Assembly: GCA_046262715.1 (NCBI GenBank)
Contig: JBHEMG010000217.1
Span: 4,878 to 68,877 of the forward strand
Source of the DNA: Gemmatimonadales bacterium
GTDB taxonomy: Bacteria > Gemmatimonadota > Gemmatimonadetes > Gemmatimonadales > GWC2-71-9
Direction: 5' to 3'
Length of the DNA stretch: 64,000 bases
The notes under the pieces were generated by a model. The model saw nothing but the letters and a program-made list of their open reading frames with translations, was not told the origin of the DNA and searched no databases. The position numbers were made by a program, and so were the translations under genes. This document shows positions 45,668 through 62,804 of this stretch, one piece after another; within the stretch, counting starts at the first letter, position 1, and each line of letters starts with the position of its first letter.

Positions 45668-46172
45668 AGGAAGCCTCGTCTCCGCCCGCTTATTGCTGTT
45701 CCGCGTCGGAACACTGGCGTGTGCAGCCGAGGTGGAACAGGTGCGGGAGATTCTCCCGCGGCTCCCAACGACGCGTATCCCGGGCGCGCCCCCGGTTGTC
45801 GCGGGGCTCGTGAATGTCCGCGGCACGCTGGTGACGGTCGTGGAAGGGTGGCGCGCGCTGGGGCAGGATGCTCCTCCAGCCGGTCCCGCCGCAAGCCTCC
45901 CGAATCAAACGTCCGAGCCCGCGCCCGACGCGGTGGGAGGGTCCACGATCATCCTCGAGATCGCCTTGGTTGCGGGCGACAAGGGGCGCGTGATCGGCTT
46001 CACGGTGGATGAAGTGATGGACATGGTGTCCGGGGGCGACGCGAGCCTGGAAGACCGCGCCGAGCTGCCTGGCGTCGACGACGCGCTGGTGCGGGCCGTT
46101 GGGAGGTGCAACGGCGAGCTGTTCATCGTCTTGAACGTGGCGGCGTTGCTGGGCCCGATTCTGACAACTTAA
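45660..46172 (+). CDS. cheW: CheW-like coupling protein
   Basis: The ORF is trimmed to ATG 45660, overlapping the rluD stop by 8 nt. CheW-domain pattern: LLLFRVGTLACAAEVEQVREILP…PGAPPVVAGLVNVRGTLVTVV…FTVDEV…LFIVLNVAALL. Confidence 0.8.
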   Translation: MNEGSLVSARLLLFRVGTLACAAEVEQVREILPRLPTTRIPGAPPVVAGLVNVRGTLVTVVEGWRALGQDAPPAGPAASLPNQTSEPAPDAVGGSTIILEIALVAGDKGRVIGFTVDEVMDMVSGGDASLEDRAELPGVDDALVRAVGRCNGELFIVLNVAALLGPILTT

Positions 46173-46182
46173 GGAGCGAGCG

Positions 46183-46545
46183 GTGAGCCACACGGTTCTC
46201 GTCTGTGACGACGCCATCTTCATGCGCACGATGATCACCGATATTCTGGCGCAGGCCGGATTCGAGGTGGTCGGGGAGGCGGAAACGGGGACCCAGGCGG
46301 TGGAGAAGTACCGGCAGCTGAAGCCGGACCTGGTCACCATGGACATCGTGATGCCGGATATGGGCGGCATCGACGCCGTGCGCGAAATCGTAAAGCAGGA
46401 CCCCGACGCCAAGATCCTGATGTGCAGCGCGATGGGCCAGCAGGCGCTGGTCGTCGAAGCGATTCAGGCGGGGGCCAAAGACTTCGTCGTCAAACCTTTC
46501 CAGCCTTCCCGCGTCCTCGAAGCCGTCCAGCGCGTCCTGGGATAG
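46183..46545 (+). CDS. cheY: CheY-like single-domain response regulator
   Basis: 120 aa. AAGGAG lies 7 nt upstream of the GTG start. REC motifs are VLVCDDA, DLVTMDIVMPDMGG (phospho-Asp) and KDFVVKPF. Confidence 0.92.
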   Translation: MSHTVLVCDDAIFMRTMITDILAQAGFEVVGEAETGTQAVEKYRQLKPDLVTMDIVMPDMGGIDAVREIVKQDPDAKILMCSAMGQQALVVEAIQAGAKDFVVKPFQPSRVLEAVQRVLG

Positions 46546-46547
46546 CG

Positions 46548-48461: not shown

Positions 48462-48476
48462 AGACAGGAGCCAGGC

Positions 48477-49094
48477 ATGGAAGACGTCCGTGATCTGAAA
48501 GCGCTGCAGCTCGACGCCCTGAAGGAGGTCGCCAACATCGGGGCCGGCCACGCGGCGACGGCATTATCGCAGCTCACGCACCGCCGCATCATGATTTCCG
48601 TGCCCGAGATCAACATCGCTCGGCTCGAAGACGTGCCCGGGCTGCTCGGCGATCCGCAGGAAGTCGTCGCCGCGGTGCTGATGCACATGCTGGGGGATCT
48701 GACCGGCCGCACCCTGCTGCTGTTCCCCGAGCCAGTCGGCCGGAAGCTGTGCGACATGCTGCTCAAGCGCCCGCTCGGCACGACGACCGTGTTCGAGACG
48801 ATCGAGCAGTCCTGTCTCAAGGAGGCCGGCAACATCCTTTCCGGCGCGTACATGAACGCGCTGTCGGAATTCATGGGCATGCTCCTGCTGCCCTCGGTGC
48901 CGAGCCTCGTGGTGGACCTCTCCGCCGCCGTGCTCACGACGACGTACCTGAATTTCGGACACGACCGCGACTTCGTGTTTTGCGTCGAGACGGAATTCAG
49001 CATTGAGGCGCAGGACGGATTACGCGGGCACTTCCTGCTCCTGCCCGACTTGGCGTCCCTGAAAGCTATTTTCGACGCCATTCGGTTGACTTGA
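48477..49094 (+). CDS. cheC: CheC-family CheY-P phosphatase
   Basis: 205 aa with two CheC-type repeats: LDALKEVANIGAGHAATALSQL and EQSCLKEAGNILSGAYMNALSEF. Confidence 0.8.
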   Translation: MEDVRDLKALQLDALKEVANIGAGHAATALSQLTHRRIMISVPEINIARLEDVPGLLGDPQEVVAAVLMHMLGDLTGRTLLLFPEPVGRKLCDMLLKRPLGTTTVFETIEQSCLKEAGNILSGAYMNALSEFMGMLLLPSVPSLVVDLSAAVLTTTYLNFGHDRDFVFCVETEFSIEAQDGLRGHFLLLPDLASLKAIFDAIRLT

Positions 49095-51793
49095 CGGTAT
49101 CTGAACGTGACGTAGCCGTCTTGCGGTCCTTCGCCCGCCGGATCGATCCGTCGGACGCGGGGGCGCACAACAATCTTGGCGTTCTCTACTATCAGAAAGG
49201 CCTCGTCCCCGAGGCGATCGAGCAGTTTACGCGCGCGCTCGAGCTCGATCCGCGCATGCAGGTGGCGCAGCGCAATCTCGAAATCGCGTATCACAACACC
49301 GGCTTTTACGACCGCCGGGTCGCCGAGCTGCAGGAGCGCCTGCGCCAGGCGCCCGACGACCGCGACGCGCGCTGGGAGCTCGGCCGCACCTACGCGGTGT
49401 TGGGAGCGTTCGAGGATGCGGTCGCCGAGTTCGAGGAGCTGCTCGCCCACAGACCGAAGGACGTCGCGGGGATCATCCAGCTTGGCCTGGCCGAGAAGTC
49501 ACGCGGACGCCTCGAGGTAGCCACCGAATGGTTCCTGCGCGCCGCCGAGGAGGAGCCGGACTCGTCCGTCGTCCATTTCTATCTGGGAGAGGTTTACTAC
49601 AACCGCGGACTGAATGAGCCAGCGCTCACGGCGTTGGAGCGCTCGGTGCGCCTCAACCCCGACAACGCCAATGCGCACTACCTGATGGCCTTCGTACTCG
49701 GCGACATGGGCCGCCACCAGGATGCGCGCGCGGCGTCGAAGCGCGCGATTCAGCTGAACCCGCCGCTCGCGCGCGCGCAGACGAACCTGTCGCTGGAGCG
49801 CTATCGCGCCGAACGGCAGTCCGCCGAGAAGCGCGTGCGCGACCAGCCGAGTCCGGAGGTGGCGGAGGGAAGCGAGCTGGCCCACTTCAACCTCGGCCTC
49901 GCGTTCCGGCAGAAAGGCTATTACACCGAGGCGCTCCGGGAATACCGCGTCGCGATCGAGCGTGGCGAGGATCGGCGCCTCGTGCGTCAGGCGATGGCCG
50001 AAGTGCACCTCCTGAAGCGCGACTTTACCGACGCGCTCGAGATCTACGAGTCGCTGATTCACGACGTCCCCGATTCGCCCAAACTCTGGAACGAGCGGGG
50101 CGTCGTGCTGCATCAGGCGGGGCGCACCGGCGAGGCGCTGACCTCGTACCGGCAGGCGACGGACGTCGACCCGCGCTACGCGCTGGCGTGGAATAACGTC
50201 GGCGTGGTGCTGGCGCATCAGAGCGATACCGAAGATGCGATCGAGGCGTTTCGGAAAGCACTGCAGCTCTCGCCCGACTTCGCCGGGGCGCGACTCAACC
50301 TCGCCCTGTTGCTGGCGCACCTGCGTCGCTTCCAGCTCGCGTTGGAAGCGTATCGCCAGGTGCTCGCCGTGCAGCAGGCCTCCGCGCCCGCCTGGAACGG
50401 CGTCGGCCTGGTGCTCGTCGAGCTGAAGCGCTTTCCCGACGCGCGGAATGCGTTCGTCCGCGCGGTGGAAGCCGATCCGCAGAACGCCGGCGCGCACTAT
50501 AACCTCAGCTTCACGCTCTCCAATCTCGGCGACTACGACGGCGCACTGCGCGCCACCAAGCGCGCTTTGGAGCTCGATCCCTACTACGTGTCGCAGAAAT
50601 TCGCGCTGGCGATCGACCTGCAGTACGAAACCGTCGCCATCGGCATCGTGCCCGAAATCTCCGCCGACGTGCAGGCGGAGAATCTCGGAACGGAGTTCGC
50701 GTTCGATCAGCGGCTGCTCGACAACATCTTTCAGGAGCTCGCGCCGCCCGCGGCGGCGCCGCAGGCCACGCCCCCGGGGATCGCCAAGAAAGCCAAGGAC
50801 GATCCGCTCGCGCTGGCGCGCGACTACGTCAGCAAAGGGATGATGGATCTCGCGGTGGCCGAAGCGATGCGCGCCGTGCAGCGGGGCGCGGATCGCGGTC
50901 TCACCGCGTCGTTGCTCGGCGACATCTACGCGCGGCGCGGCCTGCATGGCGAGGCACTGGAGCGCTATCGCGAGGCGCGCACCCTCGACGGCACCAACGC
51001 GGCGGCCGCGCTGGGGGAGCTCAAGAGCCTGCTTGCGGTGGGCCGCGCCGCCGAAGCACTTCCCCTCGCGGAGGCCCTCGTCGCGACGGCACCCGACGAC
51101 GTGGAGGTGCTGGTCGCGATCGCCAAAGCACGCTCGGCGGTGGGCGACGCCGCGGGGGCGCTCACCGGACTGCGCCAGGCGCAGACGCGCGCGCCGGCCC
51201 GCGCCGATCTGCACAAACTCCAGGGCGACATCGCGCTGAAGGTGGGCGACCGCCAGGGAGCGCGGCAGGCGTACCGGTCGGCGCTCGATCTCGATCAGGG
51301 CTTTGTACAAGTGTGGCTCGATCTCGGACGACTGCACGAGCAGGACGAGGAATGGCCGCAGGCGCGCGCGGCGTACGAGGCGGCGCTCGAGTCACTGCCG
51401 ACCTTCCACGAGGCCTCGCTCGCCTTGGCCGACCTGCTGCGCCGGTCAGGCAGTGTGCGTGCCGCGATCGTCCGGCTCGCCGAAATGCTGGAGCAAGATC
51501 CCTACGACATGGACGCGCTGCTCCTGCTCGGCCGCGCGCTGCTCGATGACAAGCATGATGCCGAGGCGCTGGAAGCGTTCCGCCGGGCTTTGAAATTTGA
51601 TCCCGAGCACACCGCGGCCCTGTTCTACGTCGGCGCGACGCTCGCGCGGCTGCAGCGCTATACCGAAGCCGTCGCGGCGTGGGACCGCGTGACGCGCATC
51701 GATCCCGCCGGCCCGTTCGCCCAGCGCGCGCGCATGCACGCGCGCACGGCGGTCGACCTGCAGCACATTTTCTCCACCTCGGACGCGGCGTAG
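49091..51793 (+). CDS. Large tetratricopeptide-repeat protein (900 aa)
   Basis: The TTG start overlaps the cheC stop (TTGA). TPR consensus recurs throughout (…AHNNLGVLYYQKGLVPEAIEQFTRALELDP…, …AWNNVGVVLAHQSDTEDAIEAFRKALQLSP…). No other domain is seen. Confidence 0.85.
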   Translation: MTVSERDVAVLRSFARRIDPSDAGAHNNLGVLYYQKGLVPEAIEQFTRALELDPRMQVAQRNLEIAYHNTGFYDRRVAELQERLRQAPDDRDARWELGRTYAVLGAFEDAVAEFEELLAHRPKDVAGIIQLGLAEKSRGRLEVATEWFLRAAEEEPDSSVVHFYLGEVYYNRGLNEPALTALERSVRLNPDNANAHYLMAFVLGDMGRHQDARAASKRAIQLNPPLARAQTNLSLERYRAERQSAEKRVRDQPSPEVAEGSELAHFNLGLAFRQKGYYTEALREYRVAIERGEDRRLVRQAMAEVHLLKRDFTDALEIYESLIHDVPDSPKLWNERGVVLHQAGRTGEALTSYRQATDVDPRYALAWNNVGVVLAHQSDTEDAIEAFRKALQLSPDFAGARLNLALLLAHLRRFQLALEAYRQVLAVQQASAPAWNGVGLVLVELKRFPDARNAFVRAVEADPQNAGAHYNLSFTLSNLGDYDGALRATKRALELDPYYVSQKFALAIDLQYETVAIGIVPEISADVQAENLGTEFAFDQRLLDNIFQELAPPAAAPQATPPGIAKKAKDDPLALARDYVSKGMMDLAVAEAMRAVQRGADRGLTASLLGDIYARRGLHGEALERYREARTLDGTNAAAALGELKSLLAVGRAAEALPLAEALVATAPDDVEVLVAIAKARSAVGDAAGALTGLRQAQTRAPARADLHKLQGDIALKVGDRQGARQAYRSALDLDQGFVQVWLDLGRLHEQDEEWPQARAAYEAALESLPTFHEASLALADLLRRSGSVRAAIVRLAEMLEQDPYDMDALLLLGRALLDDKHDAEALEAFRRALKFDPEHTAALFYVGATLARLQRYTEAVAAWDRVTRIDPAGPFAQRARMHARTAVDLQHIFSTSDAA

Positions 51794-51796: not shown

Positions 51797-52939
51797 ATGG
51801 CGATCGAAGGACCGCTACGCGAGCTCGGCATCCACGACGTCTTCCAGCTGCTCGACTTGAGCCGCAAGACGGGCGCGCTGCGCGTGACCTCCGAGCTGCG
51901 CCATAACGAGGGCAAGATCTACTTCGATAACGGCGTTGTCATCTCCGCCGAGATCCGCAGCAACCCGCACCCGCTGGGCGCGCTCTTGCTGCGCACGGGG
52001 AAAATCACGGAATCCGATCTCGAGCGCGCGCGAGACATGCAGCAGCGTCAGGGCGACAAGCGCCGGCTCGGCGAAATCTTCGTCGCGCTCGGCGTCATCA
52101 CGCCGCGCGAGGTGGAGCGTCAGATCCGCTTCCAGATCGAGGAAGTGGTGTTCGAGGTGATGAGCTGGAATGAGGGGTACTTCTCGTTCGCCGAGGACTC
52201 CGAAGCCAAAGTGCCGACGGAAGTGACCGTCCGCATTCCGGTCGAGGCGCTGCTTATGGAAGGCGCGCGGCGCATCGACGAATGGTCACGTATCGAGAAC
52301 CGTATTCCGCATGTGGGCGTCGTGCCGTCGCTCGCTCCGCCGCCGCCAGAGGGCGTGGGCGGTGAGCTGGATTTGCTGCCGCCGGAATGGGAGGTGCTGG
52401 CGCTCATCGATGGCCAGCGTTCCGTCCGCGGCTTGGCGACTGAGCTGGGGCGCTCGGATTTCGAAGTGGCCAAGACGCTGTTCGGCCTCGAGAGCGCGGC
52501 GGTCATCGTGCTCGTCGATCCCGGAACGAGCAAGCGCGGCGGTGCGAGCACCGCCGTCGATCTCACCGAGCTGGTGGCGAAGGCCGAGCGCGCGCTGCAG
52601 GACAAGGATCTCGACGCCGCGCGCGCGGCCGCGGAGCAGGCGGGCAGCATGCAGCCGCATGACGCGACGGTCCACCTCCTGCTTGGGCGCATCCATCTGG
52701 CGCAGGGCCACGGCTCTGCCGCCGCGGAGGAGCTGCGGCGCGCGCTGCGACTCGACCCGCTGCTGGCCGCGGCGCATCGCCAGCTCGGGTACGCGCTCGT
52801 GTCGATGGGGCGCTTCGGCGAGGCGGTGCAGAGCTGGGATCACTGGGAACGGCTTGCCGCCCGCAGCCCCGAGGAAGAGGCGCAGCGCGAGGACGTGCAA
52901 CGGGCGCGCGAGGCCGCGAGAGTGTTCAGCCATGGCTGA
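51797..52939 (+). CDS. PATAN/DUF4388 domain protein with C-terminal TPRs
   Basis: 380 aa. The N-terminal signature GPLRELGIHDVFQLLDLSRKTGALRV…GKIYFDNGVVISA… is followed by …WNEGYFSFAED. There is a helical insertion with two RLGxxL…Q motifs and a C-terminal TPR (…VHLLLGRIHLAQGHGSAAAEELRRALRLDP…). Confidence 0.8.
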   Translation: MAIEGPLRELGIHDVFQLLDLSRKTGALRVTSELRHNEGKIYFDNGVVISAEIRSNPHPLGALLLRTGKITESDLERARDMQQRQGDKRRLGEIFVALGVITPREVERQIRFQIEEVVFEVMSWNEGYFSFAEDSEAKVPTEVTVRIPVEALLMEGARRIDEWSRIENRIPHVGVVPSLAPPPPEGVGGELDLLPPEWEVLALIDGQRSVRGLATELGRSDFEVAKTLFGLESAAVIVLVDPGTSKRGGASTAVDLTELVAKAERALQDKDLDAARAAAEQAGSMQPHDATVHLLLGRIHLAQGHGSAAAEELRRALRLDPLLAAAHRQLGYALVSMGRFGEAVQSWDHWERLAARSPEEEAQREDVQRAREAARVFSHG

Positions 52940-53744
52940 TGACATTCGCGCCCTCTCCGCTCAGCTCGCCCAGGATCCGCAGAGTCTCGTCTTCCTGCGG
53001 CTCGGCGAAGCGCTGCGGCGCAAAGGCCAGCTCGACGCCGCGTTCCGCGTCGCCATGAACGGTCTGGAGCGTCACCCACACCTCGCCGACGCGCATGACC
53101 TCTACGCCCGCGTGCTGACGGACAAGCACGATTACCAACGGGCGTTTGACGAATGGGATATGGCCGTGCGCATCGCGCCACATCACACGGGCGCGCTCAA
53201 GGGACTCGCCTTCCTCTATTTTAAGGTCGGTGACCTGGCCCAGGCGGAGGCGCATCTCGAAACCGCGCGGAAGGTCGAGCCGGACGATCCGAGCATTGAT
53301 CAGGCGATCGCCATGATGCGGGGTGGGGTCAGTCCGCCGTCACCGACAGCGACTGCGGAGACCCCGATCGCGTCACCGCTCGACGAATCCCGAGTCTTCG
53401 CCGGCCTCGAAGGCGCGAACGAAGGACTGCTGCTCATCGATGGCGCCGGCCGGGTGCTGGGTGGCGCGCTGCGAGACAAGGGCGGCGCCGATGTGACCGA
53501 TGCCGTCGCGGCGTACCTCGCCGGCGTATCGCAGGAAGCGGCCCGTACGGCGAAGCTATTGGGACTTGGTGCCTGGATCGGGCTTTCCGCGGAGGGCCAG
53601 CACGGCAACGTGCACCTCTCGCATCCCACGCCCGAGGCATTGCTGCTCGTCGTCCGCGAGCGTGGGATGCCGCTGGGCCGGCTCGCAATTCTTGCGCAGC
53701 GCGCCACGGCGATGGCGCGCCGGTGGTTGGAGAAACAGGGATGA
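52932..53744 (+). CDS. TPR + Roadblock/LC7 (MglB-like) fusion protein
   Basis: The ORF is trimmed to ATG 52932, an 8-nt overlap. The N-terminal TPRs are …FLRLGEALRRKGQLDAAFRVAMNGLERHP…. The C-terminal ~115 aa have a Roadblock-like pattern (GLLLIDGAGRVLGG…VAAYLAGVSQEAARTAKLLGLG…LLLVVRERGMPLGRLAILAQRA). Confidence 0.7.
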   Translation: MADDIRALSAQLAQDPQSLVFLRLGEALRRKGQLDAAFRVAMNGLERHPHLADAHDLYARVLTDKHDYQRAFDEWDMAVRIAPHHTGALKGLAFLYFKVGDLAQAEAHLETARKVEPDDPSIDQAIAMMRGGVSPPSPTATAETPIASPLDESRVFAGLEGANEGLLLIDGAGRVLGGALRDKGGADVTDAVAAYLAGVSQEAARTAKLLGLGAWIGLSAEGQHGNVHLSHPTPEALLLVVRERGMPLGRLAILAQRATAMARRWLEKQG

Positions 53745-54088
53745 ACGCCACCCTCGATCTGATCACGCGCGTGCGCGGGGTCCGCGGCGCGATGCTCGTG
53801 TCGTTAGAGGACGGGCTCGTAGTCGCAGAGCAGCTGATGGAGGGCATCAAGGGCGGGGCGGTGGCGGCACTCGCTGCGAGCCTCGCCGGCCGCCTGCGCC
53901 GGGCCATGGAAGCGGCCGGCACCGGCACGAGCGTGTTCTGGCATCTGCAGGCCGAACAGGGCGCGTTGCTGGTCGTTCCCACCGGCGATGCGAGCACCGG
54001 CATGATCGTCGTGGCGGTCGCCGAGCCCGATGTGAACATCGGACTGGTGCGACTGGAGCTGTTGCGTACCGCCGGGAGTGTGGGATGA
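53741..54088 (+). CDS. Roadblock/LC7 domain protein (MglB-like)
   Basis: The ORF is trimmed to ATG 53741 (ATGA overlap), giving 115 aa. GVRGAMLVSLEDGLVVAE…AALAASLAGRL…ALLVVPTG…IVVAVAEPDVNIGLVRLELLR resembles M. xanthus MglB (…SLGLVRLRIKK…) as I recall it. Confidence 0.75.
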   Translation: MNATLDLITRVRGVRGAMLVSLEDGLVVAEQLMEGIKGGAVAALAASLAGRLRRAMEAAGTGTSVFWHLQAEQGALLVVPTGDASTGMIVVAVAEPDVNIGLVRLELLRTAGSVG

Positions 54089-54561
54089 GCCCGCACACGC
54101 GCGCCGTCGAAAACTGGACGCTGCAGCCGCTGACGGACTTCGTCAAAGAAGCGTCGGTGCGTCTTGTCCTGGTGCTGACGTCGTCAGGCCAGGTGCTGGC
54201 GCAGTCCGGTTTCTCGCGCGCGGTGGACGTCATGTCGGCGGCGGCACTCGCCGCGGCGATCGTCGCGTCCACGGCGGAGCTGGCACGACAGCTGCGCCAG
54301 CCGCCCTTTGCCGCGCTGAGCCACCAGGGCCCCAAGCACGGATTCTTCCTCGCGACGTTCACGACTGACCGCGGGACGCTGGCGGTGCTGGCCGTCTACG
54401 ATCTCGATGTTTCATCGCTTGGCCTGGTACAGTTATTCTATGAGCAACTTGCCGAGGACTTGAAGTCGGCGAGTCCCAAGGGAGCGGTGCCAAAGCAGGT
54501 GTTGGCCGCGGACTTCGAGCGCGAATTGACGGACAGTCTCAACACCCTGTTCGGGAGATAG
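54085..54561 (+). CDS. Roadblock/LC7-like protein (third paralogue, MglC-like?)
   Basis: The ORF is trimmed to ATG 54085 (ATGA overlap), giving 158 aa. VRLVLVLTSSGQVLAQSG…SAAALAAAIVASTAELARQL…FFLATFT…LAVLAVYDLDVSSLGLVQLFYEQL shows the same fold pattern but is more diverged. Confidence 0.55.
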   Translation: MSPHTRAVENWTLQPLTDFVKEASVRLVLVLTSSGQVLAQSGFSRAVDVMSAAALAAAIVASTAELARQLRQPPFAALSHQGPKHGFFLATFTTDRGTLAVLAVYDLDVSSLGLVQLFYEQLAEDLKSASPKGAVPKQVLAADFERELTDSLNTLFGR

Positions 54562-54564: not shown

Positions 54565-55164
54565 TTGTCCCTGGTGAATTTCACGACCCGAGAGATCACC
54601 TGCAAAATCGTTTACTACGGACCGGGGCGGTCCGGGAAGACGACGAATCTCCATTACGTGTACGGGCGGGTGCCGGAGACGCGGCGGGGGCGCATGGTGT
54701 CGCTCGCGACGCAGACGGACCGCACGCTGTTTTTCGACTTCCTGCCAATCGATCTGGGGCAGATTTCCGGGTTCTCGACGCGGTTTCAGCTCTACACAGT
54801 TCCGGGGCAGGTCTACTACAACGCCACGCGGCGCCTCGTGCTGCAGGGGGCGGACGGCGTCGTGTTCGTGGGCGACAGCCAGGCGCGTCAGCTCGATGAA
54901 AACATCGAAAGTCTCCAAAACCTGCAGAGCAATCTGCTTGAGCACGGCGTCGACGTGCGGACGATGCCGCTCATTATGCAGTACAACAAGCAAGACCTGC
55001 CGCCGGAGCTGATTCTCACGCAGGCCGAGCTCGATGATGCGCTCAACTTCCGCAGCGTACCGAGTTTCGCGGCCGACGCGCTGCACGGCCGGGGGGTATT
55101 CGAGACCTTGAAGGGGATCTCAGAGCTCGTGCTGAAAAAGCTGGCCGCGGGGAGTCCGGCATGA
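54565..55164 (+). CDS. mglA: MglA-type Ras-like small GTPase
   Basis: 199 aa with a TTG start. [33 protein letters not shown]…[15 protein letters not shown]…[13 protein letters not shown]…[10 protein letters not shown]…MQYNKQDLP is near-collinear with M. xanthus MglA ([29 protein letters not shown]…[11 protein letters not shown]…YTVPGQ…NKRDLP) from memory. Confidence 0.92.
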   Translation: [199 protein letters not shown]

Positions 55165-57107
55165 CGAGCACCCTCAATCCGCGCTTCACCTTCGAGACGT
55201 TCGTGGTGGGCGCGGCCAACCGTCTGGCGGTCACGGCGGGGCGTACCGTCGCCGAGAATCCGGGGTCCGCCTACAACCCCCTCTTCATCTATAGTGGCTC
55301 CGGGCTCGGCAAGACGCACGTGCTCATGGGTATCGGGCACGCCGCCAAGACGCTCGCGCCACAGCTCAACATCGAATACCTGACGCTGGACGAGTACGTC
55401 GAAGCGTTTCATGCGGCGATCGCGGCTGGGCAAGGGGATGCTTTCCGTCGCCGCTTCCAGAACGTCGACGTGCTGCTCGTGGACGACGTGCAGTTTCTCA
55501 CCAATCGCAAAGAGATGCAGGCTGAGCTGCTGCGACTTACGGAAGCGCTGCAGCAGGCGGGCCATCAGATCGTGCTCGCCAGCGATCGGCCGCCCGCGGA
55601 GATCGCGGATCTGGACGAGCGGCTGATCTCCCGCTTTTCCGGCGGCTTGGTCGTCGACATGGGCATTCCCGATTATGAGACGCGCGTCGCGATCCTGCGC
55701 CGCAAAACGGAGGAGCGCGGCACATCGTTCCAGCCAGGCGTGCTCGAGGCCGTCGCAAAGATCGAACATCCCAACGTGCGGGAGCTGATGGGGGCGCTGA
55801 ACCGCCTGATCGCCTTTCAGGCGGTCAACGAAACGCCGATCAACGAAGCAGCTGCGCGGCAGGTGCTCGGCGTTCCGACCGCTGCGGGATCGCCCGCCGC
55901 CGCCGCTCCCGCCCCACCTGCGGCCGCGGCACCGGATGAGTTTTCGGAGTTCCTCAGTGACGTCACGGTCACGGTAGGAAAGGCCGTCGAGGCGTGGCGC
56001 GCGCGCGTGGCCGAGGCGGTGCTGCGCTGGGAAGGGGAAGGGTATCGCACCGGCCGGCTCGAGAAGCTGCTGGACCAGGAAACACCGGCCGCCGTGGATG
56101 AAGCGATCGCGGCCTACATCCAGGACGTGGATCGGCTCAAGGCCCTCGAAGCGGACGTCGCGATGCTCGATCCGCAAGCAGCGGGCGAGAAAGTGTTCCG
56201 CGATCCGGACCGCATGGCGGAAGCCGAAGCCGCGGCCGCCAAGGTCCGTGAGGGTGCGGCGCCCCCGCCGGCCCCGTCGGCCGCATTTCCGCTGGAGAGC
56301 TACGTCGCCGGTCCCTCCAACGAAGTCGCGCTCAACGCGGCGCGCGACGCGATCGCCGCGCCGGGCAAGAAATACAACCCGCTCGTGATCGTGGGAAAAA
56401 GCGGCCAGGGAAAGACGCACCTCCTCAACGCCATCGGTTTGGAGCTGGCGAAGCGGAAGAAAGCGGTCGTGGCCTGTTTGTCTACGCAGCAATTCGTGGA
56501 CGAGCTGATCGCCGCGATCGACGGTAATCGCGTTGACTGGTGGCGGGCGCGCTACCGCCGGGCGACGGCGCTGCTGCTAGACGACATTCAGCTGCTCGCG
56601 GGCAAGGACCGGACGCAAGAGGAGCTGTTCAATCTCTTCAATCAATTTGTCGAAGGCGATCGCCAGCTCGTCTTCACCGCGCCCGCGCACCCCAATACGC
56701 TCCAGGGGCTGGAGGAGCGCATCGTGTCGCGGCTCGAGGGCGGGCTGGTCGCGGAGATCGGCGAGCCAGACAAGGAAGTGAAGCGCGCCGCACTCGAGCG
56801 GCTCCTCAAGAACCAGCGTGTTCCCACCGAAGCGGCGCTCCTCGATTACCTCGCCGATCGTCCCGCCGATTCGGTGCGCAGCTTGACCGCCGTGGTGCAG
56901 CGCGTGGTGGAAGCGGCCGCGGCGCAGGACGCGCCCGTCACCGCCGGTCTGGCTCGCGACGTGCTCGAGGCGCCCGCGCCGCGGCGTACGACGGGGCTGC
57001 GCACGAGCGGCATCGTCGTGTCGAGCGCCGGTGGCGTGCGCAGCCGCGAGAAAATGGTGTGGGATTGGCCGTCGTCGGCGGACCGCGTCATAGAGGATTT
57101 GCGCTAG
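55161..57107 (+). CDS. Tandem DnaA-domain-III (Hda-like) AAA+ ATPase, no DNA-binding domain
   Basis: 648 aa with an ATGA overlap with mglA. Module 1: LNPRFTFETFVVGAANRLA, Walker A GSGLGKTH (55296-55316), Walker B VLLVDDVQF, SDRPPAEI…ERLISRF, PDYETRVAIL, NVRELMGALNRL. Module 2: FPLESYVAGPSNEVA, GKSGQGKTH (56394-56417), ALLLDDIQL, …ERIVSRL, PDKEVKRAAL. No domain I/II and no domain IV HTH recognised. Confidence 0.85.
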   Translation: MTSTLNPRFTFETFVVGAANRLAVTAGRTVAENPGSAYNPLFIYSGSGLGKTHVLMGIGHAAKTLAPQLNIEYLTLDEYVEAFHAAIAAGQGDAFRRRFQNVDVLLVDDVQFLTNRKEMQAELLRLTEALQQAGHQIVLASDRPPAEIADLDERLISRFSGGLVVDMGIPDYETRVAILRRKTEERGTSFQPGVLEAVAKIEHPNVRELMGALNRLIAFQAVNETPINEAAARQVLGVPTAAGSPAAAAPAPPAAAAPDEFSEFLSDVTVTVGKAVEAWRARVAEAVLRWEGEGYRTGRLEKLLDQETPAAVDEAIAAYIQDVDRLKALEADVAMLDPQAAGEKVFRDPDRMAEAEAAAAKVREGAAPPPAPSAAFPLESYVAGPSNEVALNAARDAIAAPGKKYNPLVIVGKSGQGKTHLLNAIGLELAKRKKAVVACLSTQQFVDELIAAIDGNRVDWWRARYRRATALLLDDIQLLAGKDRTQEELFNLFNQFVEGDRQLVFTAPAHPNTLQGLEERIVSRLEGGLVAEIGEPDKEVKRAALERLLKNQRVPTEAALLDYLADRPADSVRSLTAVVQRVVEAAAAQDAPVTAGLARDVLEAPAPRRTTGLRTSGIVVSSAGGVRSREKMVWDWPSSADRVIEDLR

Positions 57108-57108: not shown

Positions 57109-58725
57109 ATGGCCATCAAGGGCTCGCTCAAAGAGGCGTCGCTGCCCGACGTGCTGCAGCTGCTCGCGCTGGGACAGAAAACCGGCTGCCTGTCGATCGC
57201 CGACCGCTCGAACTTCGGCTACATCTACTTCGACAAAGGCCGCATCGCGTACGCATCGATTGTGAATCGCCGCGATCGCCTCGGCGACATCCTGGTGAAG
57301 CACGAGAAGATCACCCAGGAGCAGCTCGACGCCGCCATTCACCGCCAGGCAAAGGCACGTGACAAAAAGCTGGGCGAGATCCTCGTCAGCCAGGGCGTGA
57401 TCTCGCAGCAGGAGCTGGAGCGCTACATGCGCATGCAGATCGAAGAGTCGGTCTACTACCTGTTCACCTGGACCCAGGGCACGTTCAACTTCGAGGCCGA
57501 TGTCCGCCCCGAGCAACAGGACTTCCTGGTCAACATCAACCCCGAGTCCTTGCTGCTCGAGGGGGCGCGCCGGGTGGACGAGTGGGGGCTGATCGAGAAA
57601 AAAATCCCCTCGTTCGATTTGATCTTTCTCGTCGATCGCGACCGGCTCGCGATCAGCGACGCCAAGCTCACGGAGATGCAGGACCGGCTGCTGCCGTTGC
57701 TCGACGGCTCGCGCGACGTGAACCAGGTCATCGAAGATTCGGGGCTCGGCGAGTTCGAAGTGGGCAAAGCGCTGTACGGGCTGGTGACCGCGGGGTTCCT
57801 GCATCGCGCCGGACGCACCGCCAGCGCCGAAGACCTGAAGATGACCGATGCGCGCGTCGAAGAGCACCGCAATCTCGGCATTGCCTTCTACAAGACCGGG
57901 ATGCTCGACGAGGCGGCGCGGGAATTCCGCCGCGTGGCCGAGCTCCGCGCGACCGATGCGAACGCGCATTTCTTCATCGGCCTCGTCGCCTTGAAGCAGG
58001 CGCGTTGGCGCGAAGCGATGGAAGCGCTGCGGCTCGCCGCCGAGAAGGGCGGCTCGCGCCCGGCCGTGCTGCATAATCTCGGGCTTGCCTACGAGCAGCT
58101 CGGCCGCCTCGAAGAGGCGGAGGCGGCCTATTCCGAGGCCGCGTCACGCGCGAAGACCGATCCGCGCGTGTACGTGGGCTGGGGTATCGTGACGCTGAAG
58201 CAAGGGGACCACGCCGCGGCCGCCGGCCGGCTCGATCGCGCCAAAGAGCTGTTTGCCGAGCGGGTCCCGCCGATCTGGTTCTGGGCGCGCGCGCTCGCCG
58301 CGGCCGCGGCCGGAGACTTTGAGACCGCGGAGCAGGTCGCGGTGCAGGCGGTGGAGGCACATCCGCAGCATGGCGTGCTGCGCAACAACCTCGCGGTGTT
58401 GCACGAGCTGGCCGGCGAGCTCCCGAAGGCCGAGGACCTGGCGCGTGCGGCCTTGCAGGACGAGCCGTCGCTGCCGCAGCTCTCCAAAAATCTTGGCGAT
58501 CTCGCCTACCGTGGCTCGCGCTATGATGAAGCCTGGGACCTCTATCAGCGCGCCGTCGAGCTCGCGCCCGAGCTCGGCGACGACGTCTACTTCAAGCTTG
58601 GCAACATCGCCTACAAGCGGAACGACCGCGCGCAGGCGAACGCGTTGTGGCGCCGCGCCCTCGACCTGAATCCCAAGCACGAACTGGTGAAAGCGAATCT
58701 GGAAACATTGAGCACCTTGTCGTGA
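57109..58725 (+). CDS. PATAN/DUF4388 domain protein with long C-terminal TPR array
   Basis: 538 aa. The N-terminus is GSLKEASLPDVLQLLALGQKTGCLSI…GYIYFDKGRIAYA…WTQGTFNFE. There is a helical insertion with two RLG/KLG…Q motifs and about 7 C-terminal TPRs (…EHRNLGIAFYKTGMLDEAAREFRRVAELRA…). Confidence 0.8.
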   Translation: MAIKGSLKEASLPDVLQLLALGQKTGCLSIADRSNFGYIYFDKGRIAYASIVNRRDRLGDILVKHEKITQEQLDAAIHRQAKARDKKLGEILVSQGVISQQELERYMRMQIEESVYYLFTWTQGTFNFEADVRPEQQDFLVNINPESLLLEGARRVDEWGLIEKKIPSFDLIFLVDRDRLAISDAKLTEMQDRLLPLLDGSRDVNQVIEDSGLGEFEVGKALYGLVTAGFLHRAGRTASAEDLKMTDARVEEHRNLGIAFYKTGMLDEAAREFRRVAELRATDANAHFFIGLVALKQARWREAMEALRLAAEKGGSRPAVLHNLGLAYEQLGRLEEAEAAYSEAASRAKTDPRVYVGWGIVTLKQGDHAAAAGRLDRAKELFAERVPPIWFWARALAAAAAGDFETAEQVAVQAVEAHPQHGVLRNNLAVLHELAGELPKAEDLARAALQDEPSLPQLSKNLGDLAYRGSRYDEAWDLYQRAVELAPELGDDVYFKLGNIAYKRNDRAQANALWRRALDLNPKHELVKANLETLSTLS

Positions 58726-59507
58726 GCGAGGGAGGTGCCCAGGACTCGTTCGAGGCATTGACGAACAAGATCTCGCGCGAGCGCGGAGTGAGCTGCGGGT
58801 CGTACAAGGACAAATGCCTGAAGCGGCGCATCGCCGTGCGCATGCGCGCGCGCGGCGTCCACACCTACGCAGACTACGCCAAGGTGCTCGACGCGGATGC
58901 GCGCGAATATCAGGAGCTGCTCGACACGCTCACGATCAACGTCACGAAATTCTTTCGCAACGCGGAGATGTGGTCCGCGCTCCGGCCACACCTCCACACG
59001 CTGGCGCAGGACCGGCCCAAGCTGCGCGTCTGGTCGGCCGGCTGCGCATCGGGCGAAGAGCCCTACACGATCGCCGTCCTCCTGGCCGAGCTGGGCGTGG
59101 ACGGATCCATCGACGCGACCGATATCGACCGCCTCAGCCTCGAGCGCACACGCCAGGCCAGGTATCCCGACGCCGCGTTTTCCGAGATGCCGGCCGATGT
59201 GAAGCGCCGCTATTTCGCGGGCGGCGAGCCCGCGGCCGCCGTGCGCGGCGTGGTCCATATCCTCACACACGATCTCACCCGCGAACCGCCGCCCCATCCG
59301 CCCTACGATCTCATCGTGTGCCGGAACGTCGTCATCTATTTCGAGCGACAGGCCCAGGAGCGGCTGTTTCAGGTCTTCGTCAACGCGCTCGCGCCCAATG
59401 GCATTCTCGTGCTGGGGAAGGTCGAGACGTTGTTCGGACCGGCGCGCGAGCGCCTTACGCTGGTGGACCCGCGCGAGCGGATCTACATCAAGCCCGCGGC
59501 GTCGTGA
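58722..59507 (+). CDS. cheR: Chemotaxis protein methyltransferase CheR
   Basis: The ORF is trimmed to GTG 58722 (GTGA overlap). Motifs are INVTKFFRN, LRVWSAGCASGEEPYTIA and CRNVVIYF. Confidence 0.9.
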   Translation: MSEGGAQDSFEALTNKISRERGVSCGSYKDKCLKRRIAVRMRARGVHTYADYAKVLDADAREYQELLDTLTINVTKFFRNAEMWSALRPHLHTLAQDRPKLRVWSAGCASGEEPYTIAVLLAELGVDGSIDATDIDRLSLERTRQARYPDAAFSEMPADVKRRYFAGGEPAAAVRGVVHILTHDLTREPPPHPPYDLIVCRNVVIYFERQAQERLFQVFVNALAPNGILVLGKVETLFGPARERLTLVDPRERIYIKPAAS

Positions 59508-59986
59508 AGGAAGTCATCGTCAAGGTGGCCGATTGGGCGGCGGAGCAGGGGGACGGCGTATTAATCACGCTCGGCCTCGGCTCCTGCGTTGCGATCATGC
59601 TCCACGATCCGCAGACCAGAACCGGCGCGATGGCGCACGTGCTGCTGCCCTCGACCAGTCTGGCGCGCGACACCACCAATAGAGCGAAGTTTCCCGACAC
59701 CGCGGTCCCGCTGCTGATCGAGCGGCTCAAAGCGATAGGCGCGGATCCCCGGCGGTTGGTGGCCAAGCTCGCCGGCGGCGCCAGCATGTTCAGCCAGCTC
59801 GTCACCCCGAGCACGATCCAGATGGGGGAGCGCAATGTGCTCGCGTCCCGCAGCGCGCTGCGCAAGGCGGAGATTCCAATCCTGCGCGAAGCGGTGGGAG
59901 GTGAGCGCGGTCGCAGCGTGCGCTTCCACGTGGGGGACGGCCGGGTCGAAATCCGTTCGGTGGGAGCCGCGGCCGATGTCATCTGA
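59504..59986 (+). CDS. cheD: Chemoreceptor glutamine deamidase CheD
   Basis: The ORF is trimmed to GTG 59504 (GTGA overlap), giving 160 aa. Motifs are [17 protein letters not shown]…GAMAHVLLP…KLAGGASMF…GERN. Confidence 0.9.
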
Positions 59987-61055
59987 GGCGCGCCCGCGCG
60001 TCGTCGTTGCGGATGACAGCGCGCTGATGCGCCGGGTGCTGGTGGATGTCCTGGGCGCGCAGTTCGACGTCGTCGCCACCGCGCGCGACGGTATCGACGC
60101 GATCCGGAAGATCCATCAATACAAGCCGGACGTCGTCACGCTCGACCTCGAGATGCCGGAGCTCGATGGGCTCGGCGCGATCGGCTACATCATGTCCGAA
60201 TCACCGCTGCCGATCGTCGTCGTGAGCGCCCACGCCGGTCCCGGCACAGCGACCGCGATTCGTGCGCTGGAGCTCGGCGCGGTGGAGATCGTCGCGAAGC
60301 CGCCGCCCGATGTCTTCGGGCACGCGCGCGGCGCGCTCGAGGCCCTCGCGCCGCAGCTCGTCGACGCGGTGCGGCGGGCGCTCGCGGCCGATGTATCGCA
60401 CGTCACCGTGCTGGCGCGCCCCCCTGCGCCGGTCATGCACCCGCCGGAGCTCGCGCTGCGCGGCCGCGCCACGCTCGCGGTGGCACTCGCGGCCTCGACG
60501 GGCGGCCCACGCGCGCTCACCGACGTCGTGCCTCGGCTGCCCACTGGGCACGCCGCCGCCGTGCTCATCGTGCAACACATGCCGCCCAAGTTCACGCGCA
60601 GTCTCGCGGAGCGGCTCGATTCGATGAGCCGGCTGCGTGTGGTGGAGGGGGACGACGGCGCGCCGATCGTGGCGGATACGGCGTACGTTGCCCCGGGCGA
60701 TTATCATATGCGGGTGCGCGCCGCTCCCGATGGTCCCGTCATTGCACTCGATCAGTCCGCGCCCATCTGGGGCGTCCGGCCGGCTGCCGATCCACTGTTC
60801 CGCTCCGTCGCCGAGGTGTTCGGCGCGCGCGGTGTGGGCGTCGTGTTGACGGGAATGGGCCGGGACGGGGCGGACGGGTTGCGGGCGCTGCACGACGCCG
60901 GCGGGACCGGGCTCGCCCAGGACCGCGAAACCGCCGTCATCGCGGGCATGCCGGTCGCCGCGGTGCAGGCCGGTGGCGTCGACGCCGTGCTGCCGCTGGG
61001 CCAGATCGCCGATCGCGTTGCGGCAGAGCTGGCGCGCCGGAGGGCGTCGCGATGA
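59976..61055 (+). CDS. cheB: Chemotaxis response regulator protein-glutamate methylesterase CheB
   Basis: The ORF is trimmed to ATG 59976, an 11-nt overlap. It has REC ([11 protein letters not shown]; [14 protein letters not shown]) and an esterase domain ([12 protein letters not shown]; [10 protein letters not shown]; LTGMGRDGA). Confidence 0.92.
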
Positions 61056-61480
61056 AGGGCTACCTGCTGGTGCGCGCTGAGGGGAAGTCGTACGGCCTTC
61101 CCGTCGCGCGCGTGCTCGAAGTCGGCGATGCCACCGAAGTGCTGCAAATTCCTCATACCCTGGCCGCCATGCGAGGTCTGACACCGCTGCGCGGCCGGCT
61201 GGTTCCGCTCATTCATCTCGGCGCCTTTCTGACTGGCAGCGATGCTCCCGCACGCGCATCGAGCGCCGCGCGCACGATCGTGCTCGTCGAAGTGGGTGGA
61301 ACCGCGGGGCGCCGGCAGGTCGCGCTCGAAGTCGACGACGCGGACGTGGTCGTTCGCGAGCAACCGCTGCCGGTACCACGCGGGCAGGCGTTGCCGTGGG
61401 CAGCCGGCGTGGCGGAGGTCGAGGGCGGGACGCTGGTCCCGGTACTCGATTTGGACGCTTTGGGGGACCGGATCGGATGA
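61052..61480 (+). CDS. CheW-like domain protein
   Basis: 142 aa with an ATGA overlap. [21 protein letters not shown]…[21 protein letters not shown]…[10 protein letters not shown]… fits a CheW-like pattern. Confidence 0.72.
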
Positions 61481-61944
61481 CGACCGTCGACACGGGCGAT
61501 GAGGTCCAACTGGTGACCTTCCGGGTGGGCGGCCAGGATTTCGCGTTCAATATCTTCCAGGTGGAGCGCATCCTGCGCTACGAGGCGCCCGCGCCGCTTC
61601 CCAAAGCGCCCGATTTCCTCGAGGGCGTGCTGCAGTATCAGGGAAAAGCGATCCCGCTCGTGGACCTGCGCAAACGCCTCGGAATCGCCGCCCCGATCAA
61701 GGAAGACACGCGCACCGTGGTTCTCGAATTCGAAGGCGGCAAGATCGGCATGATCGTGGATACCGTCACGGAGGTGCTGCAGGTGGCGGCGCAGGCCGTC
61801 ACGGCGCCGCCCGGAATCGTCAAAGGGCTCGCCGCCGAATACATCGCGGGTCTTGTCGTGCAAAATGGCCGCACCATCATCGTCTTGAACACGAACAAGC
61901 TGCTGACGGCCAAGGAAAAAATGGCCCTGCAAGGAGCGGCATGA
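61477..61944 (+). CDS. cheW: CheW coupling protein
   Basis: The ORF is trimmed to ATG 61477 (ATGA overlap), giving 155 aa. QLVTFRVGGQDFAFNIFQVERILR…PKAPDFLEGVLQYQGKAIPLVDLRKRLG…GMIVDTVTEVL…IIVLNTNKLL. Confidence 0.88.
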   Translation: MTTVDTGDEVQLVTFRVGGQDFAFNIFQVERILRYEAPAPLPKAPDFLEGVLQYQGKAIPLVDLRKRLGIAAPIKEDTRTVVLEFEGGKIGMIVDTVTEVLQVAAQAVTAPPGIVKGLAAEYIAGLVVQNGRTIIVLNTNKLLTAKEKMALQGAA

Positions 61945-62804
61945 CCGAGTCGCCCGTCGCGGCGCTGCGTCGTGAATACGAGGCGATCGCGCGCCAGCTC
62001 GACGGCGCGCCGTGGGGTGCGGAGCGTGAGGCCGCCAAGCGCGAGATCATCGCCTACTTCAAGAAGGTGGATGGCATGCTGGGCGAGATGACCCAGCTCA
62101 AGGACGACATCCGCCAACTCGTGGATCGCTACAAGCAGCTCGCGGCGGATACCAAGCAGGCGGCCGCTCCCGAATTCACGGGCCAACGGCCGGCGATGCA
62201 TGCCGATCACATCGGCGCGTCAACGTTCATCGAAAAAGGATGGAGCCTCATCTCGCTGGGCGATCACGCCGGCGCGATCCAGTCACTCACCAAGGCGCTG
62301 CAGCTCTCTCCCGGGGAGACCCAGGCCGAGTCACTGCTCGGCTGGGCGCAGATGCTGCACGAGGATTACGACGACGCGCTTGGCACATTCCAGAAGGTGT
62401 TGATGAAGGAGCCGGCGAATTCGCTCGCGCGCATCAACGTCGGCTACATCTGTCTCAAGAAGCGAATTTTCGGTGAGGCAATCGAGCATCTATCGAAGGC
62501 CATCCGGCTGGATAACGACAAGAAGGCGACGTTGTACGCGCACTTTTATCTCGGGCTCGTCTATCTGCAGCGTGAGATGTACGAAGACGCCGAGACATTC
62601 TTTCAGAAAACGTTGAAGCTCGGTCCCAATCTCATCGAGGCGTACTACGAGCTGGGACGCGCGCACTGGTTCGCCGGCGATCAGGCGAAGGCCAAGTCGA
62701 CGTGGGAAGACGGTTTCAAGGCGAACAAGTTCAATCCCTGGGGCAAGAAGTGTCAGGAGATGGTTGAGCTTGTCGCCAAGGGTGAGGAGCCGCCGCGAGA
62801 CTAG
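61941..62804 (+). CDS. Coiled-coil + TPR protein
   Basis: 287 aa with an ATGA overlap. The N-terminal ~70 aa are helical and charged, followed by TPRs (…GDHAGAIQSLTKALQLSP…, …YYELGRAHWFAGDQAKAKSTWEDGFKAN). Confidence 0.75.
   Translation: MTESPVAALRREYEAIARQLDGAPWGAEREAAKREIIAYFKKVDGMLGEMTQLKDDIRQLVDRYKQLAADTKQAAAPEFTGQRPAMHADHIGASTFIEKGWSLISLGDHAGAIQSLTKALQLSPGETQAESLLGWAQMLHEDYDDALGTFQKVLMKEPANSLARINVGYICLKKRIFGEAIEHLSKAIRLDNDKKATLYAHFYLGLVYLQREMYEDAETFFQKTLKLGPNLIEAYYELGRAHWFAGDQAKAKSTWEDGFKANKFNPWGKKCQEMVELVAKGEEPPRD

Follow-up and report, generated by a model that had tools for sequence, protein, structure and literature searches.

What is the ATPase module of the replication initiator doing, in two copies, in an operon of a Ras-like GTPase and a chemosensory pathway? 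The question is raised by a 64,000-nucleotide (nt) stretch of DNA from a soil Gemmatimonadales bacterium (GenBank assembly GCA_046262715.1, contig JBHEMG010000217.1, positions 4,878 to 68,877, forward strand), hereafter the window, in which an open reading frame (ORF) at 55161-57107 (+) encodes a protein of 648 amino acids (aa) with two DnaA domain III modules in tandem; we use DnaA2 as a working label for this protein. DnaA domain III is among the best studied bacterial ATPase modules, and DnaC and IstB, two ATPases related to it, likewise work on DNA; as far as we know and could find, domain III itself has been tied only to replication, in DnaA and in Hda. Here this known module occurs duplicated, without the DNA-targeting domains and in a new, signaling setting across Gemmatimonadota, which suggests that an initiator ATPase has been reused as a signaling switch. 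On balance, we lean toward the interpretation that DnaA2 is an ATP switch or scaffold that derives from DnaA, takes no part in replication, acts together with PATAN-TPR proteins and is, in this genome, gated by MglA-MglB and a Frz-like chemosensory (Che) pathway.

Two DnaA domain III modules in one protein

The reading frame of DnaA2 is genuine: in the + frame, the G+C content at third codon positions (GC3) is 0.82, in a window with 67% G+C, and the homologues number in the thousands. The start codon overlaps the stop codon of mglA, the upstream ORF (54565-55164), in the tetranucleotide ATGA (55161-55164). An antisense ORF (54888-56492) was considered and rejected as a high-GC artefact, long ORFs on both strands being common at such G+C.

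In the whole protein, Pfam detects Bac_DnaA in two stretches (E 1.3e-101), and when the parts are scanned separately, the match is recovered both in residues 1-240 (E 4.5e-56) and in residues 370-648 (E 1.2e-44), the linker alone (241-369) having no Pfam match. The N and C modules share 33% identity over 232 aa (E 1e-41), and the N module is ~55% identical to residues 110-342 of B. subtilis DnaA in a gapless alignment. The protein begins four residues ahead of its domain III match, with no DnaA_N match to fill the room; neither DnaA_N nor Bac_DnaA_C (E<=0.01) was found by Pfam, and a helix-turn-helix or a domain I hidden in the linker or the tail was ruled out by hhalign comparison of both regions with alignments of DnaA domain IV and domain I (probability <1%). 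The AlphaFold2 (AF2) model, built on 40 diverse relatives, has a mean predicted local distance difference test score (pLDDT) of 89.7 and a predicted template modeling score (pTM) of 0.53 and contains two well-defined DnaA domain III folds; in Foldseek, it superposes on B. subtilis DnaA domain III (8bv3) with TMt 0.95 and a root-mean-square deviation (rmsd) of 1.5 Å. A preliminary description of this DNA, made from the sequence alone, had proposed the 648-aa ORF with its ATG in the mglA stop, two Bac_DnaA matches and no Bac_DnaA_C, a second module that is AAA+ by itself, the absence of a helix-turn-helix, of domain IV and of domain I, and an Ala/Pro-rich, then helical linker, and all of this is borne out, as is the presence of each motif that it quoted (Walker A and B, box VII, SDR and APA). 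The features of the gene are as follows:

55161..57107, +: DnaA2, tandem DnaA-domain-III ATPase, 648 aa (ORF list, Pfam, AF2, Foldseek)
55173..55868, +: N module (aa 5-236), folded as DnaA domain III, ATP site complete (Pfam, alignment)
55296..55319, +: Walker A of the N module, GSGLGKTH
55473..55496, +: Walker B of the N module, LLVDDVQF
55614..55637, +: box VII of the N module, DERLISRF (alignment to canonical DnaA)
55773..55793, +: sensor II of the N module, NVRELMG, R207 corresponding to E. coli R334 (alignment)
55869..55943, +: Ala/Pro-rich disordered spacer (aa 237-261; pLDDT <50 for residues 242-263)
55944..56255, +: helical linker domain (aa 262-365), three long helices (AF2)
56283..56975, +: C module (aa 375-605), folded as DnaA domain III, ATP site degenerating (Pfam E 1.2e-44)
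56394..56420, +: Walker A of the C module, GKSGQGKTH
56571..56594, +: Walker B of the C module, LLLDDIQL
56712..56735, +: box VII of the C module, EERIVSRL, R524 being the arginine-finger equivalent
57048..57104, +: conserved C-terminal tail, EKMVWDWPSSADRVIEDLR (conservation in 72 relatives)

Judging from the alignment, the N module possesses all five elements of the AAA+ site (the Walker A Lys, the Walker B acidic pair, sensor I, the arginine finger and sensor II), with R154 and R158 of box VII aligned to E. coli R281 and R285, the arginine finger, and the C module possesses all but the sensor I Asp, with APA (56676-56693) where the N module has SDR. Across 72 relatives of DnaA2, non-redundant at 60% identity, which form the basis of all conservation counts given here, these residues are retained to the following extent:

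Walker A Lys: N module 71/72, C module 59/72
Walker B first Asp: N module 71/72, C module 62/72
Walker B second Asp: N module 70/72, C module 52/72
Sensor I Asp: N module 54/72, C module 25/72
Arginine finger: N module 49/72 (R158), C module 54/72 (R524)
Sensor II Arg: N module 64/72, C module 47/72

These counts speak for selection on DnaA2 as an ATPase. A nearly invariant N site next to an eroding C site is what is commonly seen in tandem AAA+ pairs, in which one site works and the other is regulatory or structural. The same layout, two AAA+ modules per chain of which one is conserved and one is degenerating, is found in p97, NSF and ClpB, but only the tandem arrangement is shared with these proteins, which belong to another AAA+ clade (TM ~0.3, rmsd >20 Å) and among which p97 is ranked by Foldseek below the DnaA matches. 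Classical-clade AAA+ proteins are ring hexamers, and the initiator-clade modules in DnaA form open spirals.

The part between the modules is not simply a tether. Downstream of the disordered spacer, aa 262-365 are modelled with pLDDT >90 in the full-length protein and, alone, as a bundle of three long helices with pLDDT 91.8; this linker is conserved at 30-55% across the family and is missing in short-linker variants such as P0166. No relatives of the linker were found by Foldseek against the PDB (best E 2.1), by a profile search of the PDB (none <E 0.2) or in Pfam. Past another stretch that is disordered in the AF2 model (aa 609-628), the chain ends with a short tail of the pattern EK-h-V-W-x-W-P ... 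D-R-h-h-E, the most conserved feature of DnaA2 beyond the ATPase modules (W636 in 67/72 relatives, P637 in 59/72, R642 in 54/72). The tail is also found in relatives from loci without mglA and thus tracks the constant partner, PATAN/TPR; that it is short, conserved, located past a disordered stretch and encoded with TPR genes adjoining suggests a putative TPR-docking peptide.

So could the relationships of the two modules help understanding the origin of the family? In a rough neighbor-joining (NJ) tree, the N modules and the C modules form separate clades, both much nearer to canonical DnaA than to E. coli Hda, and a low-GC basal group (P0162, P0171, P0181 and others) combines two nearly canonical copies of domain III with recognizable linker and tail motifs. 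To the extent that sequences can tell, the family looks like the product of a tandem duplication of DnaA domain III, after which mainly the C copy diverged. A separate observation is the 673-aa protein P0197 (ENA, 2.6 kb contig), which has two domain III modules and a domain IV-like C-terminus (...GRDHTTVQHA...) and is either a double-domain-III initiator or a misassembly. In the search for the canonical DnaA of Gemmatimonadota, seeding with another sequence, P0253, returned mostly DnaAs of the alphaproteobacterial type and none labelled Gemmatimonadota, and P0253 itself is unreliable (1.6 kb contig, 0.53x coverage).

Compared with DnaA proper, DnaA2 has in common Bac_DnaA, the Walker A and B motifs, the box VII Arg, sensor II and the fold, but lacks domain I/II (helicase loading) and domain IV (DnaA-box binding), contains two ATPase modules per chain together with a new helical linker and a new C-terminal tail, does not keep, in the N module, the invariant DnaA helix that follows Walker B, and is encoded in a polarity/chemosensory operon and not beside dnaN. 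The preliminary description had called the modules Hda-like. Hda/HdaA is a domain-III-only paralogue of DnaA that inactivates DnaA-ATP together with the sliding clamp, and the likeness holds insofar as DnaA2, too, consists of domain III only, the Hda structures in the PDB (3sc3, 3bos) being weak matches; beyond this it does not hold. Hda is a single domain III of ~230-250 aa in a different gene neighborhood, whereas DnaA2 is a tandem protein of 648 aa, and the tree places it nearer to DnaA. The Hda model TIGR03420 is the best named NCBIfam match of the C module (aa 377-603), but the score of 182.5 bits is below the cut-off of 194.8, and DnaA2 stays far below the cut-offs of the other Hda models. 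No clamp motif of the Hda type (QL[SP]LPL-like) is visible at either end of DnaA2 by eye, no formal motif scan having been run; the N-terminus reads MTSTLNPRFTFETF, to be compared with LNTPAQLSLPL in E. coli Hda.

Automated annotation is of limited help here. The family is labelled "DnaA/Hda family protein" in databases and, for many members, "chromosomal replication initiator protein DnaA" by JGI, the latter wrongly. DnaA2 scores 500.6 against TIGR00362, the NCBIfam DnaA equivalog (cut-off 343.9), yet the match covers model positions 101-335 only, twice, so that it is the duplication that lifts the score artificially over the cut-off; together with the JGI labels, this means that automated calls of origins and initiators in these genomes can be misled. 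Two further classifications were tried and rejected. As an anti-phage defense ATPase, DnaA2 yields only generic P-loop and TPR matches in PADLOC (mad8, 32 bits, over the Walker A region; TPR models), and as an IS21/IstB helper, it has IstB_IS21 matches that are secondary to Bac_DnaA, with no transposase nearby.

Gene linkage and the core of the locus

The second, and equally important, aspect of DnaA2 is its genomic context. A search of 1.84 billion cluster representatives returned many full-length relatives with 33-58% identity, and the layout of N module, linker, C module and tail is common to the full-length relatives; the family as a whole spans 33-90% identity. In a scan of one genome per species, relatives were found in 198 species, and the best 80 of these 198 are all labelled Gemmatimonadota except for two contigs; among close homologues, every taxon label is Gemmatimonadales or Gemmatimonadota. 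At two loci (L045 and L068), the operon is present at 76% identity under the labels of Myxococcales and Thermoleophilaceae metagenome-assembled genomes, an identity that makes binning errors most likely.

Of 82 loci, 81 have mglA directly upstream of DnaA2 and 81 have a PATAN-TPR gene directly downstream, the overlap with mglA being 4 nt in 81/81 measurable loci and the distance from the DnaA2 stop to the PATAN-TPR start being -1 to +1 nt in 81/81. Six further metagenome loci have the same order and the same 4-nt overlap, which makes 87 loci, all with their upstream DNA available, in which mglA adjoins DnaA2. This stands in contrast to the canonical rpsT-dnaA-dnaN-recF-gyrB arrangement, as seen in L173 (P0416). 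The whole operon is retained in members of the family in which DnaA2 is only 59% and 32% identical. Across loci, identity is 78-97% for MglA and 32-90% for DnaA2, with a mean of 79% that is typical of the operon. The six metagenome loci mentioned above come from a scan that took the low-GC basal group as its seed; the other 74 of the 80 loci that it returned were ordinary dnaA genes, because the Walker A region was among the two scan patterns.

Table S2 of Wuichet and Sogaard-Andersen (2014) lists "PATAN>MglA>-PATAN>" for GAU_1409 of G. aurantiaca, with the middle gene unnamed in that entry, and this order appears to match that of the DnaA2 operon. A separate case is a 4.05 Mb long-read contig (ENA ERZ25039549; L088, 10001-13401), where the tandem DnaA gene is spread over three frames, the PATAN-TPR gene is also split and the dksA-lspA-rluD region upstream looks broken as well; a decaying locus and long-read indel errors are not distinguishable here, and the contig is not used as evidence.

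In the window, DnaA2 lies between mglA and a PATAN-TPR gene within a run of genes at 45.6-62.8 kb that overlap or abut, with no terminator-like site on the + strand in this interval. In the order of the operon, the other genes are:

45660..49094, +: first che block, consisting of the next four genes
45660-46172, +: CheW (Pfam)
46183-46545, +: CheY (Pfam, ORF)
46548-48461, +: CheA (Pfam)
48477-49094, +: CheC (Pfam)
49091..51793, +: large TPR protein, 900 aa (Pfam)
51797..52939, +: second PATAN-TPR protein (Pfam DUF4388 E 2.5e-32)
52932..53744, +: TPR protein, 270 aa (Pfam)
53723..54088, +: second Roadblock/LC7 protein (Robl_LC7 E 5.8e-10; PDB 7f8m E 6.5e-6)
54085..54561, +: MglB-like Roadblock protein (Robl_LC7; M. 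xanthus MglB 6h5b E 2.2e-8)
54565..55164, +: mglA, group-1 MglA small GTPase, TTG start (phmmer against the PDB)
57109..58725, +: PATAN (DUF4388/PatA_N)-TPR protein, directly downstream of DnaA2 (DUF4388 E 2.4e-40 and TPRs)
58647..62804, +: second che block, opening with CheR and continuing with the next five genes (Pfam)
59504-59986, +: CheD (Pfam)
59976-61055, +: CheB (Pfam)
61052-61480, +: CheW (Pfam)
61477-61944, +: CheW (Pfam)
61941-62804, +: TPR protein at the end of the second che block (Pfam)

By its alignment, the gene upstream of DnaA2 is a true group-1 MglA: the product is ~62% identical over its full length to M. xanthus MglA (5ymx, E 1.6e-72), matches that of T. thermophilus (3t12, E 1.4e-68) and has the GPGxxGKTT P-loop, the intrinsic arginine and YTVPGQ (the TVPGQ switch II signature) conserved. 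No chemoreceptor (methyl-accepting chemotaxis protein) gene was found in the operon (45660-62804) or among the window ORFs that were scanned. By visual inspection, the 270-aa TPR protein resembles Roadblock proteins in its C-terminal half; comparison with the two Roadblock proteins of the operon by phmmer gave insignificant scores only.

Is the association with MglA then the essential one? Five diverged loci (P0166, L089, P0268, L086 and L090) lack mglA and keep a PATAN and/or TPR neighbor, from which it follows that the steadiest partner of DnaA2 is PATAN/TPR and not MglA. The P0166 locus (JGI 3300056388) consists of the tandem DnaA gene, a PATAN-TPR gene and another TPR gene, and L089 (10001-14310) of the tandem DnaA gene followed by PATAN-TPR only; both are devoid of che, Roadblock and mglA genes and occupy the same chromosomal site as the operon in the window, between ileS ... 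rluD and Peptidase_MA_2. These minimal cassettes suggest that the che and mglA blocks have been gained or lost in place. The P0268 locus (JGI 3300042731), again with a tandem DnaA, a PATAN-TPR and a TPR gene and without che, Roadblock and mglA, lies at a different chromosomal place. In L086 (49% G+C), there are che genes, a large TPR gene and a PATAN gene that is translationally coupled to the tandem DnaA gene, and no mglA; a homologue of the 900-aa TPR protein is encoded near the tandem DnaA gene in L086 and directly upstream of it in L090 (50% G+C). A core of DnaA2 and PATAN/TPR in the diverged loci implies that the MglA-MglB and Che layers are additions. As regards the preliminary description, its GTPase/chemosensory operon is verified by phmmer and Pfam for the MglA, Roadblock and Che genes, and it was right that there is no dnaN or recF neighbor; the linkage to mglA that it proposed is upheld by the 4-nt overlap at 81/81 loci and at the six metagenome loci, but fails at the five diverged ones.

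Some other features of these loci and of the window deserve mention in their own right. L086 contains an extra STAND-like P-loop ATPase (4035-4853; AAA_16/AAA_22/nSTAND) and a 344-aa CheW-domain protein between cheA and cheC, and L090 (3765-4667) contains two bactofilin genes ~5 kb upstream of the pair formed by the homologue of the 900-aa TPR protein and the tandem DnaA. In a 387-aa protein from JGI (P0245), TPR repeats are fused to one Bac_DnaA module, a combination reminiscent of the link between the tandem family and TPR proteins. The operon in the window is flanked by housekeeping genes (FtsH, CdaA, YggS, PNP, IleRS, DksA/TraR, LspA and RluD upstream; Peptidase_MA_2 downstream), and no dnaN, recF or gyrB is found in the 64 kb. 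Elsewhere in the window, a multicopper oxidase is encoded in two overlapping ORFs (19259-21279; Cu-oxidase_3, and Cu-oxidase with Cu-oxidase_2), the result of either a frameshift or an ORF-picking artefact, and a 242-aa protein (3706-4434) has a partial match to PF02276, the photosynthetic reaction-centre cytochrome c subunit (E 2e-12, positions 92-155).

A candidate ATP switch and its rivals

How might a protein of this kind work? We propose that DnaA2 and PATAN-TPR, often with a further TPR protein, would form the core of a Gemmatimonadota signaling module and that, in this genome, the core would sit within an MglA-MglB polarity switch and a Frz-like chemosensory pathway. The N module would be the working ATP site, and the C module a partly degenerate regulatory or structural partner. 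Given that the C module keeps the arginine finger, the two modules could form one composite AAA+ interface, either intramolecular or head-to-tail. ATP binding would lead to a DnaA-style open, non-ring assembly or to a conformational switch, and the helical linker together with the W-x-W-P/acidic tail would dock DnaA2 onto the TPR arrays of its neighbors. MglA-GTP and Che phosphorylation would gate the place and time of this docking or assembly, and the likely result would be control over where a polar machine is placed or how active it is, the type IV pilus motor being the most plausible candidate. The architecture of DnaA2, the conservation of its motifs, the gene linkage and the phyletic range are observed; the asymmetry of the two ATPase modules, the docking on TPRs and the pilus output are what we infer in this scheme.

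A parallel can be drawn with M. xanthus, where the MglA-MglB/Frz parts set front-rear polarity and the placement of pili. The DnaA2 operon resembles this system in having MglA, an MglB homologue, another Roadblock protein, TPR proteins and a full Che set, but the genes are dispersed in M. xanthus, whereas here they form one operon with DnaA2 between mglA and PATAN-TPR; no DnaA-clade AAA+ ATPase was found described in the literature on the M. xanthus MglA/Frz system, and neither RomR nor RomX is seen in the DnaA2 operon. The polarity of type IV pili in M. xanthus is under MglA control (PMC11580455). In one account, the PATAN domain of Synechocystis PatA-type regulators is reported to bind PilB1 and PilC (10.1101/2021.06.11.447907), and in another, PATAN had already been placed in the vicinity of MglA and MglB genes (PMC4316618, citing Makarova 2006); these papers do not describe a pairing with a tandem DnaA-like ATPase. 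The neighbors of DnaA2 share the PATAN (DUF4388) domain with the cyanobacterial regulators PatA and PixE/PixG, but here it is fused to TPRs and not to a receiver domain.

A further connection between the initiator ATPase and pili comes from a different group of proteins. MshEN is the type of domain that is found at the N-terminus of PilB and MshE. Fusions of MshEN with one or two Bac_DnaA modules (398, 921, 983, 1876 and 1990 aa) occur in L087 and L171, two contigs unrelated to each other; in L087 (GCA_030620115.1, JAUXFG010000024.1, 2623-25923), they belong to a pilus cluster of pilD, pilB, pilT, pilC and pilS/R, in L171 (JGI 3300068090, 1738-17238), to one of pilD, pilB, pilT and pilC, and in both they lie between pilD and pilB/T/C. 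The fusions look like a second non-replicative use of the DnaA ATPase module, and one that seemingly has yet to be described. That motility and polarity signaling has taken up the module of the DnaA initiator clade as a nucleotide switch on at least two occasions, once in DnaA2, paired with PATAN-TPR and in most Gemmatimonadales part of an MglA-MglB/Che operon, and once in the MshEN-DnaA-III fusions of the pilus clusters, is a generalization that we put forward tentatively, as a conjecture falling somewhat short of probable.

Several facts weigh against the interpretation of DnaA2 as a non-replicative switch or scaffold. Throughout, the function of DnaA2 is deduced from gene association; no pilus genes are present within the 64 kb window, and at a pTM of 0.53, the placement of the two modules relative to each other is not predicted. 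Conservation of the arginine finger barely differs between the modules (49/72 vs 54/72), so that the asymmetry between N and C is one of the ATP-site residues only. The C module reads GKDRTQ, resembling GKERTQ, the motif of Aquifex DnaA that contacts single-stranded DNA (ssDNA), and may accordingly have kept some capacity to bind DNA. Furthermore, with ~55% identity to a true DnaA domain III and both box VII Arg in place, the N module would also fit an interaction with DnaA.

The last point leads to an alternative under which DnaA2 regulates replication: it would co-assemble with the DnaA oligomer, cap or titrate it, or stimulate its ATP hydrolysis by means of an arginine finger in the manner of Hda, such that the polarity and chemosensory state would gate initiation. 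The Gemmatimonadota type species is reported to bud, and polarity-gated replication could make sense there. Compatible with such a role are the gapless alignment of the N module with DnaA, its Walker A and B motifs, sensors and box VII Arg, the 1.5 Å fit to domain III, the greater proximity of both modules to DnaA than to Hda and the almost canonical copies in the low-GC basal group. We nevertheless consider it unlikely. The clamp motif of Hda is not visible and the Hda score is below the cut-off; the helix after Walker B, which is invariant in the 20 canonical DnaAs used for comparison (FFHTFN in E. coli), is replaced in the N modules, with Glu or Asp in 49/72 at the position of the ssDNA-contacting R245 of E. 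coli; divergence of DnaA2 down to 32% identity, against at least 78% for MglA, is a poor fit to a slowly evolving interface with DnaA; and the constant neighbors, in the loci examined, are PATAN/TPR and never replication genes. Initiator-clade AAA+ proteins (DnaA, DnaC, IstB and ORC) bind DNA through their ATPase modules, and this general property gives rise to another scenario, in which ATP-loaded DnaA2 might bind DNA non-specifically and position or partition a cytoplasmic chemosensory and polarity complex by means of the nucleoid, by analogy with the ParA-type proteins PpfA/ParC. In the C module, the K-x-R-T motif of the ssDNA-contact loop is in agreement with this possibility (at the R245 position, Arg in 43/72), as is the composition of the operon, which encodes CheA, three CheW, CheY, CheR, CheB, CheC and CheD but no receptor, so that an unusual organization of the array is conceivable. 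The N modules, though, do not conserve the basic residue, DnaA2 has no dedicated DNA-binding domain, and the minimal loci without che genes still keep DnaA2 and PATAN-TPR. The comparison itself is an analogy and not homology: PpfA/ParC likewise are accessory ATPases encoded inside chemosensory operons but have the ParA/MinD fold with a deviant Walker A and not the AAA+ fold. All in all, tethering to the nucleoid strikes us as rather improbable.

Finally, could DnaA2 be a second or aberrant initiator of replication, or else a copy of dnaA that is decaying and has no function? The TIGR00362 score above the cut-off and the initiator label of many JGI members point that way, but the score is high on account of the two domain III copies, both domain IV and domain I, required for DnaA-box binding and helicase loading, are absent, and the gene sits in a signaling operon; it was on the strength of the architecture and the operon setting that the preliminary description could dismiss the initiator, and we concur. 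Nor is the gene decaying, considering that an intact ORF and conserved ATP-site residues are found in at least 198 species-level genomes and hundreds of metagenome clusters. This last explanation we regard as very improbable, and the evidence separates it well from the non-replicative switch or scaffold; the separation from the other two is less complete, and they retain weight given the strong likeness of the N module to DnaA and the DNA-contact motif of the C module.

Implications for Gemmatimonadota and for polarity systems

The statement of the preliminary description that a duplicated DnaA-clade ATPase has no described function agrees with our search of the full-text literature, in which none was found, nor any paper joining a DnaA-like ATPase with MglA, PATAN, Roadblock, che genes or MshEN. 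If DnaA2 is indeed a non-replicative switch or scaffold, an ATP-dependent layer would be added to polarity control by MglA and PATAN, and the PATAN-TPR proteins would gain a defined partner. The Gemmatimonadota are abundant soil bacteria on whose motility and polarity we know of almost nothing, and DnaA2 would provide a handle on both, all the more as G. aurantiaca, which appears to share the DnaA2 gene order, is cultivable. In more general terms, DnaA2 would then represent a new class of components of Ras-like-GTPase polarity systems, an ATP-driven, filament-forming or TPR-docking scaffold alongside the GTP switch and the phosphorelay.

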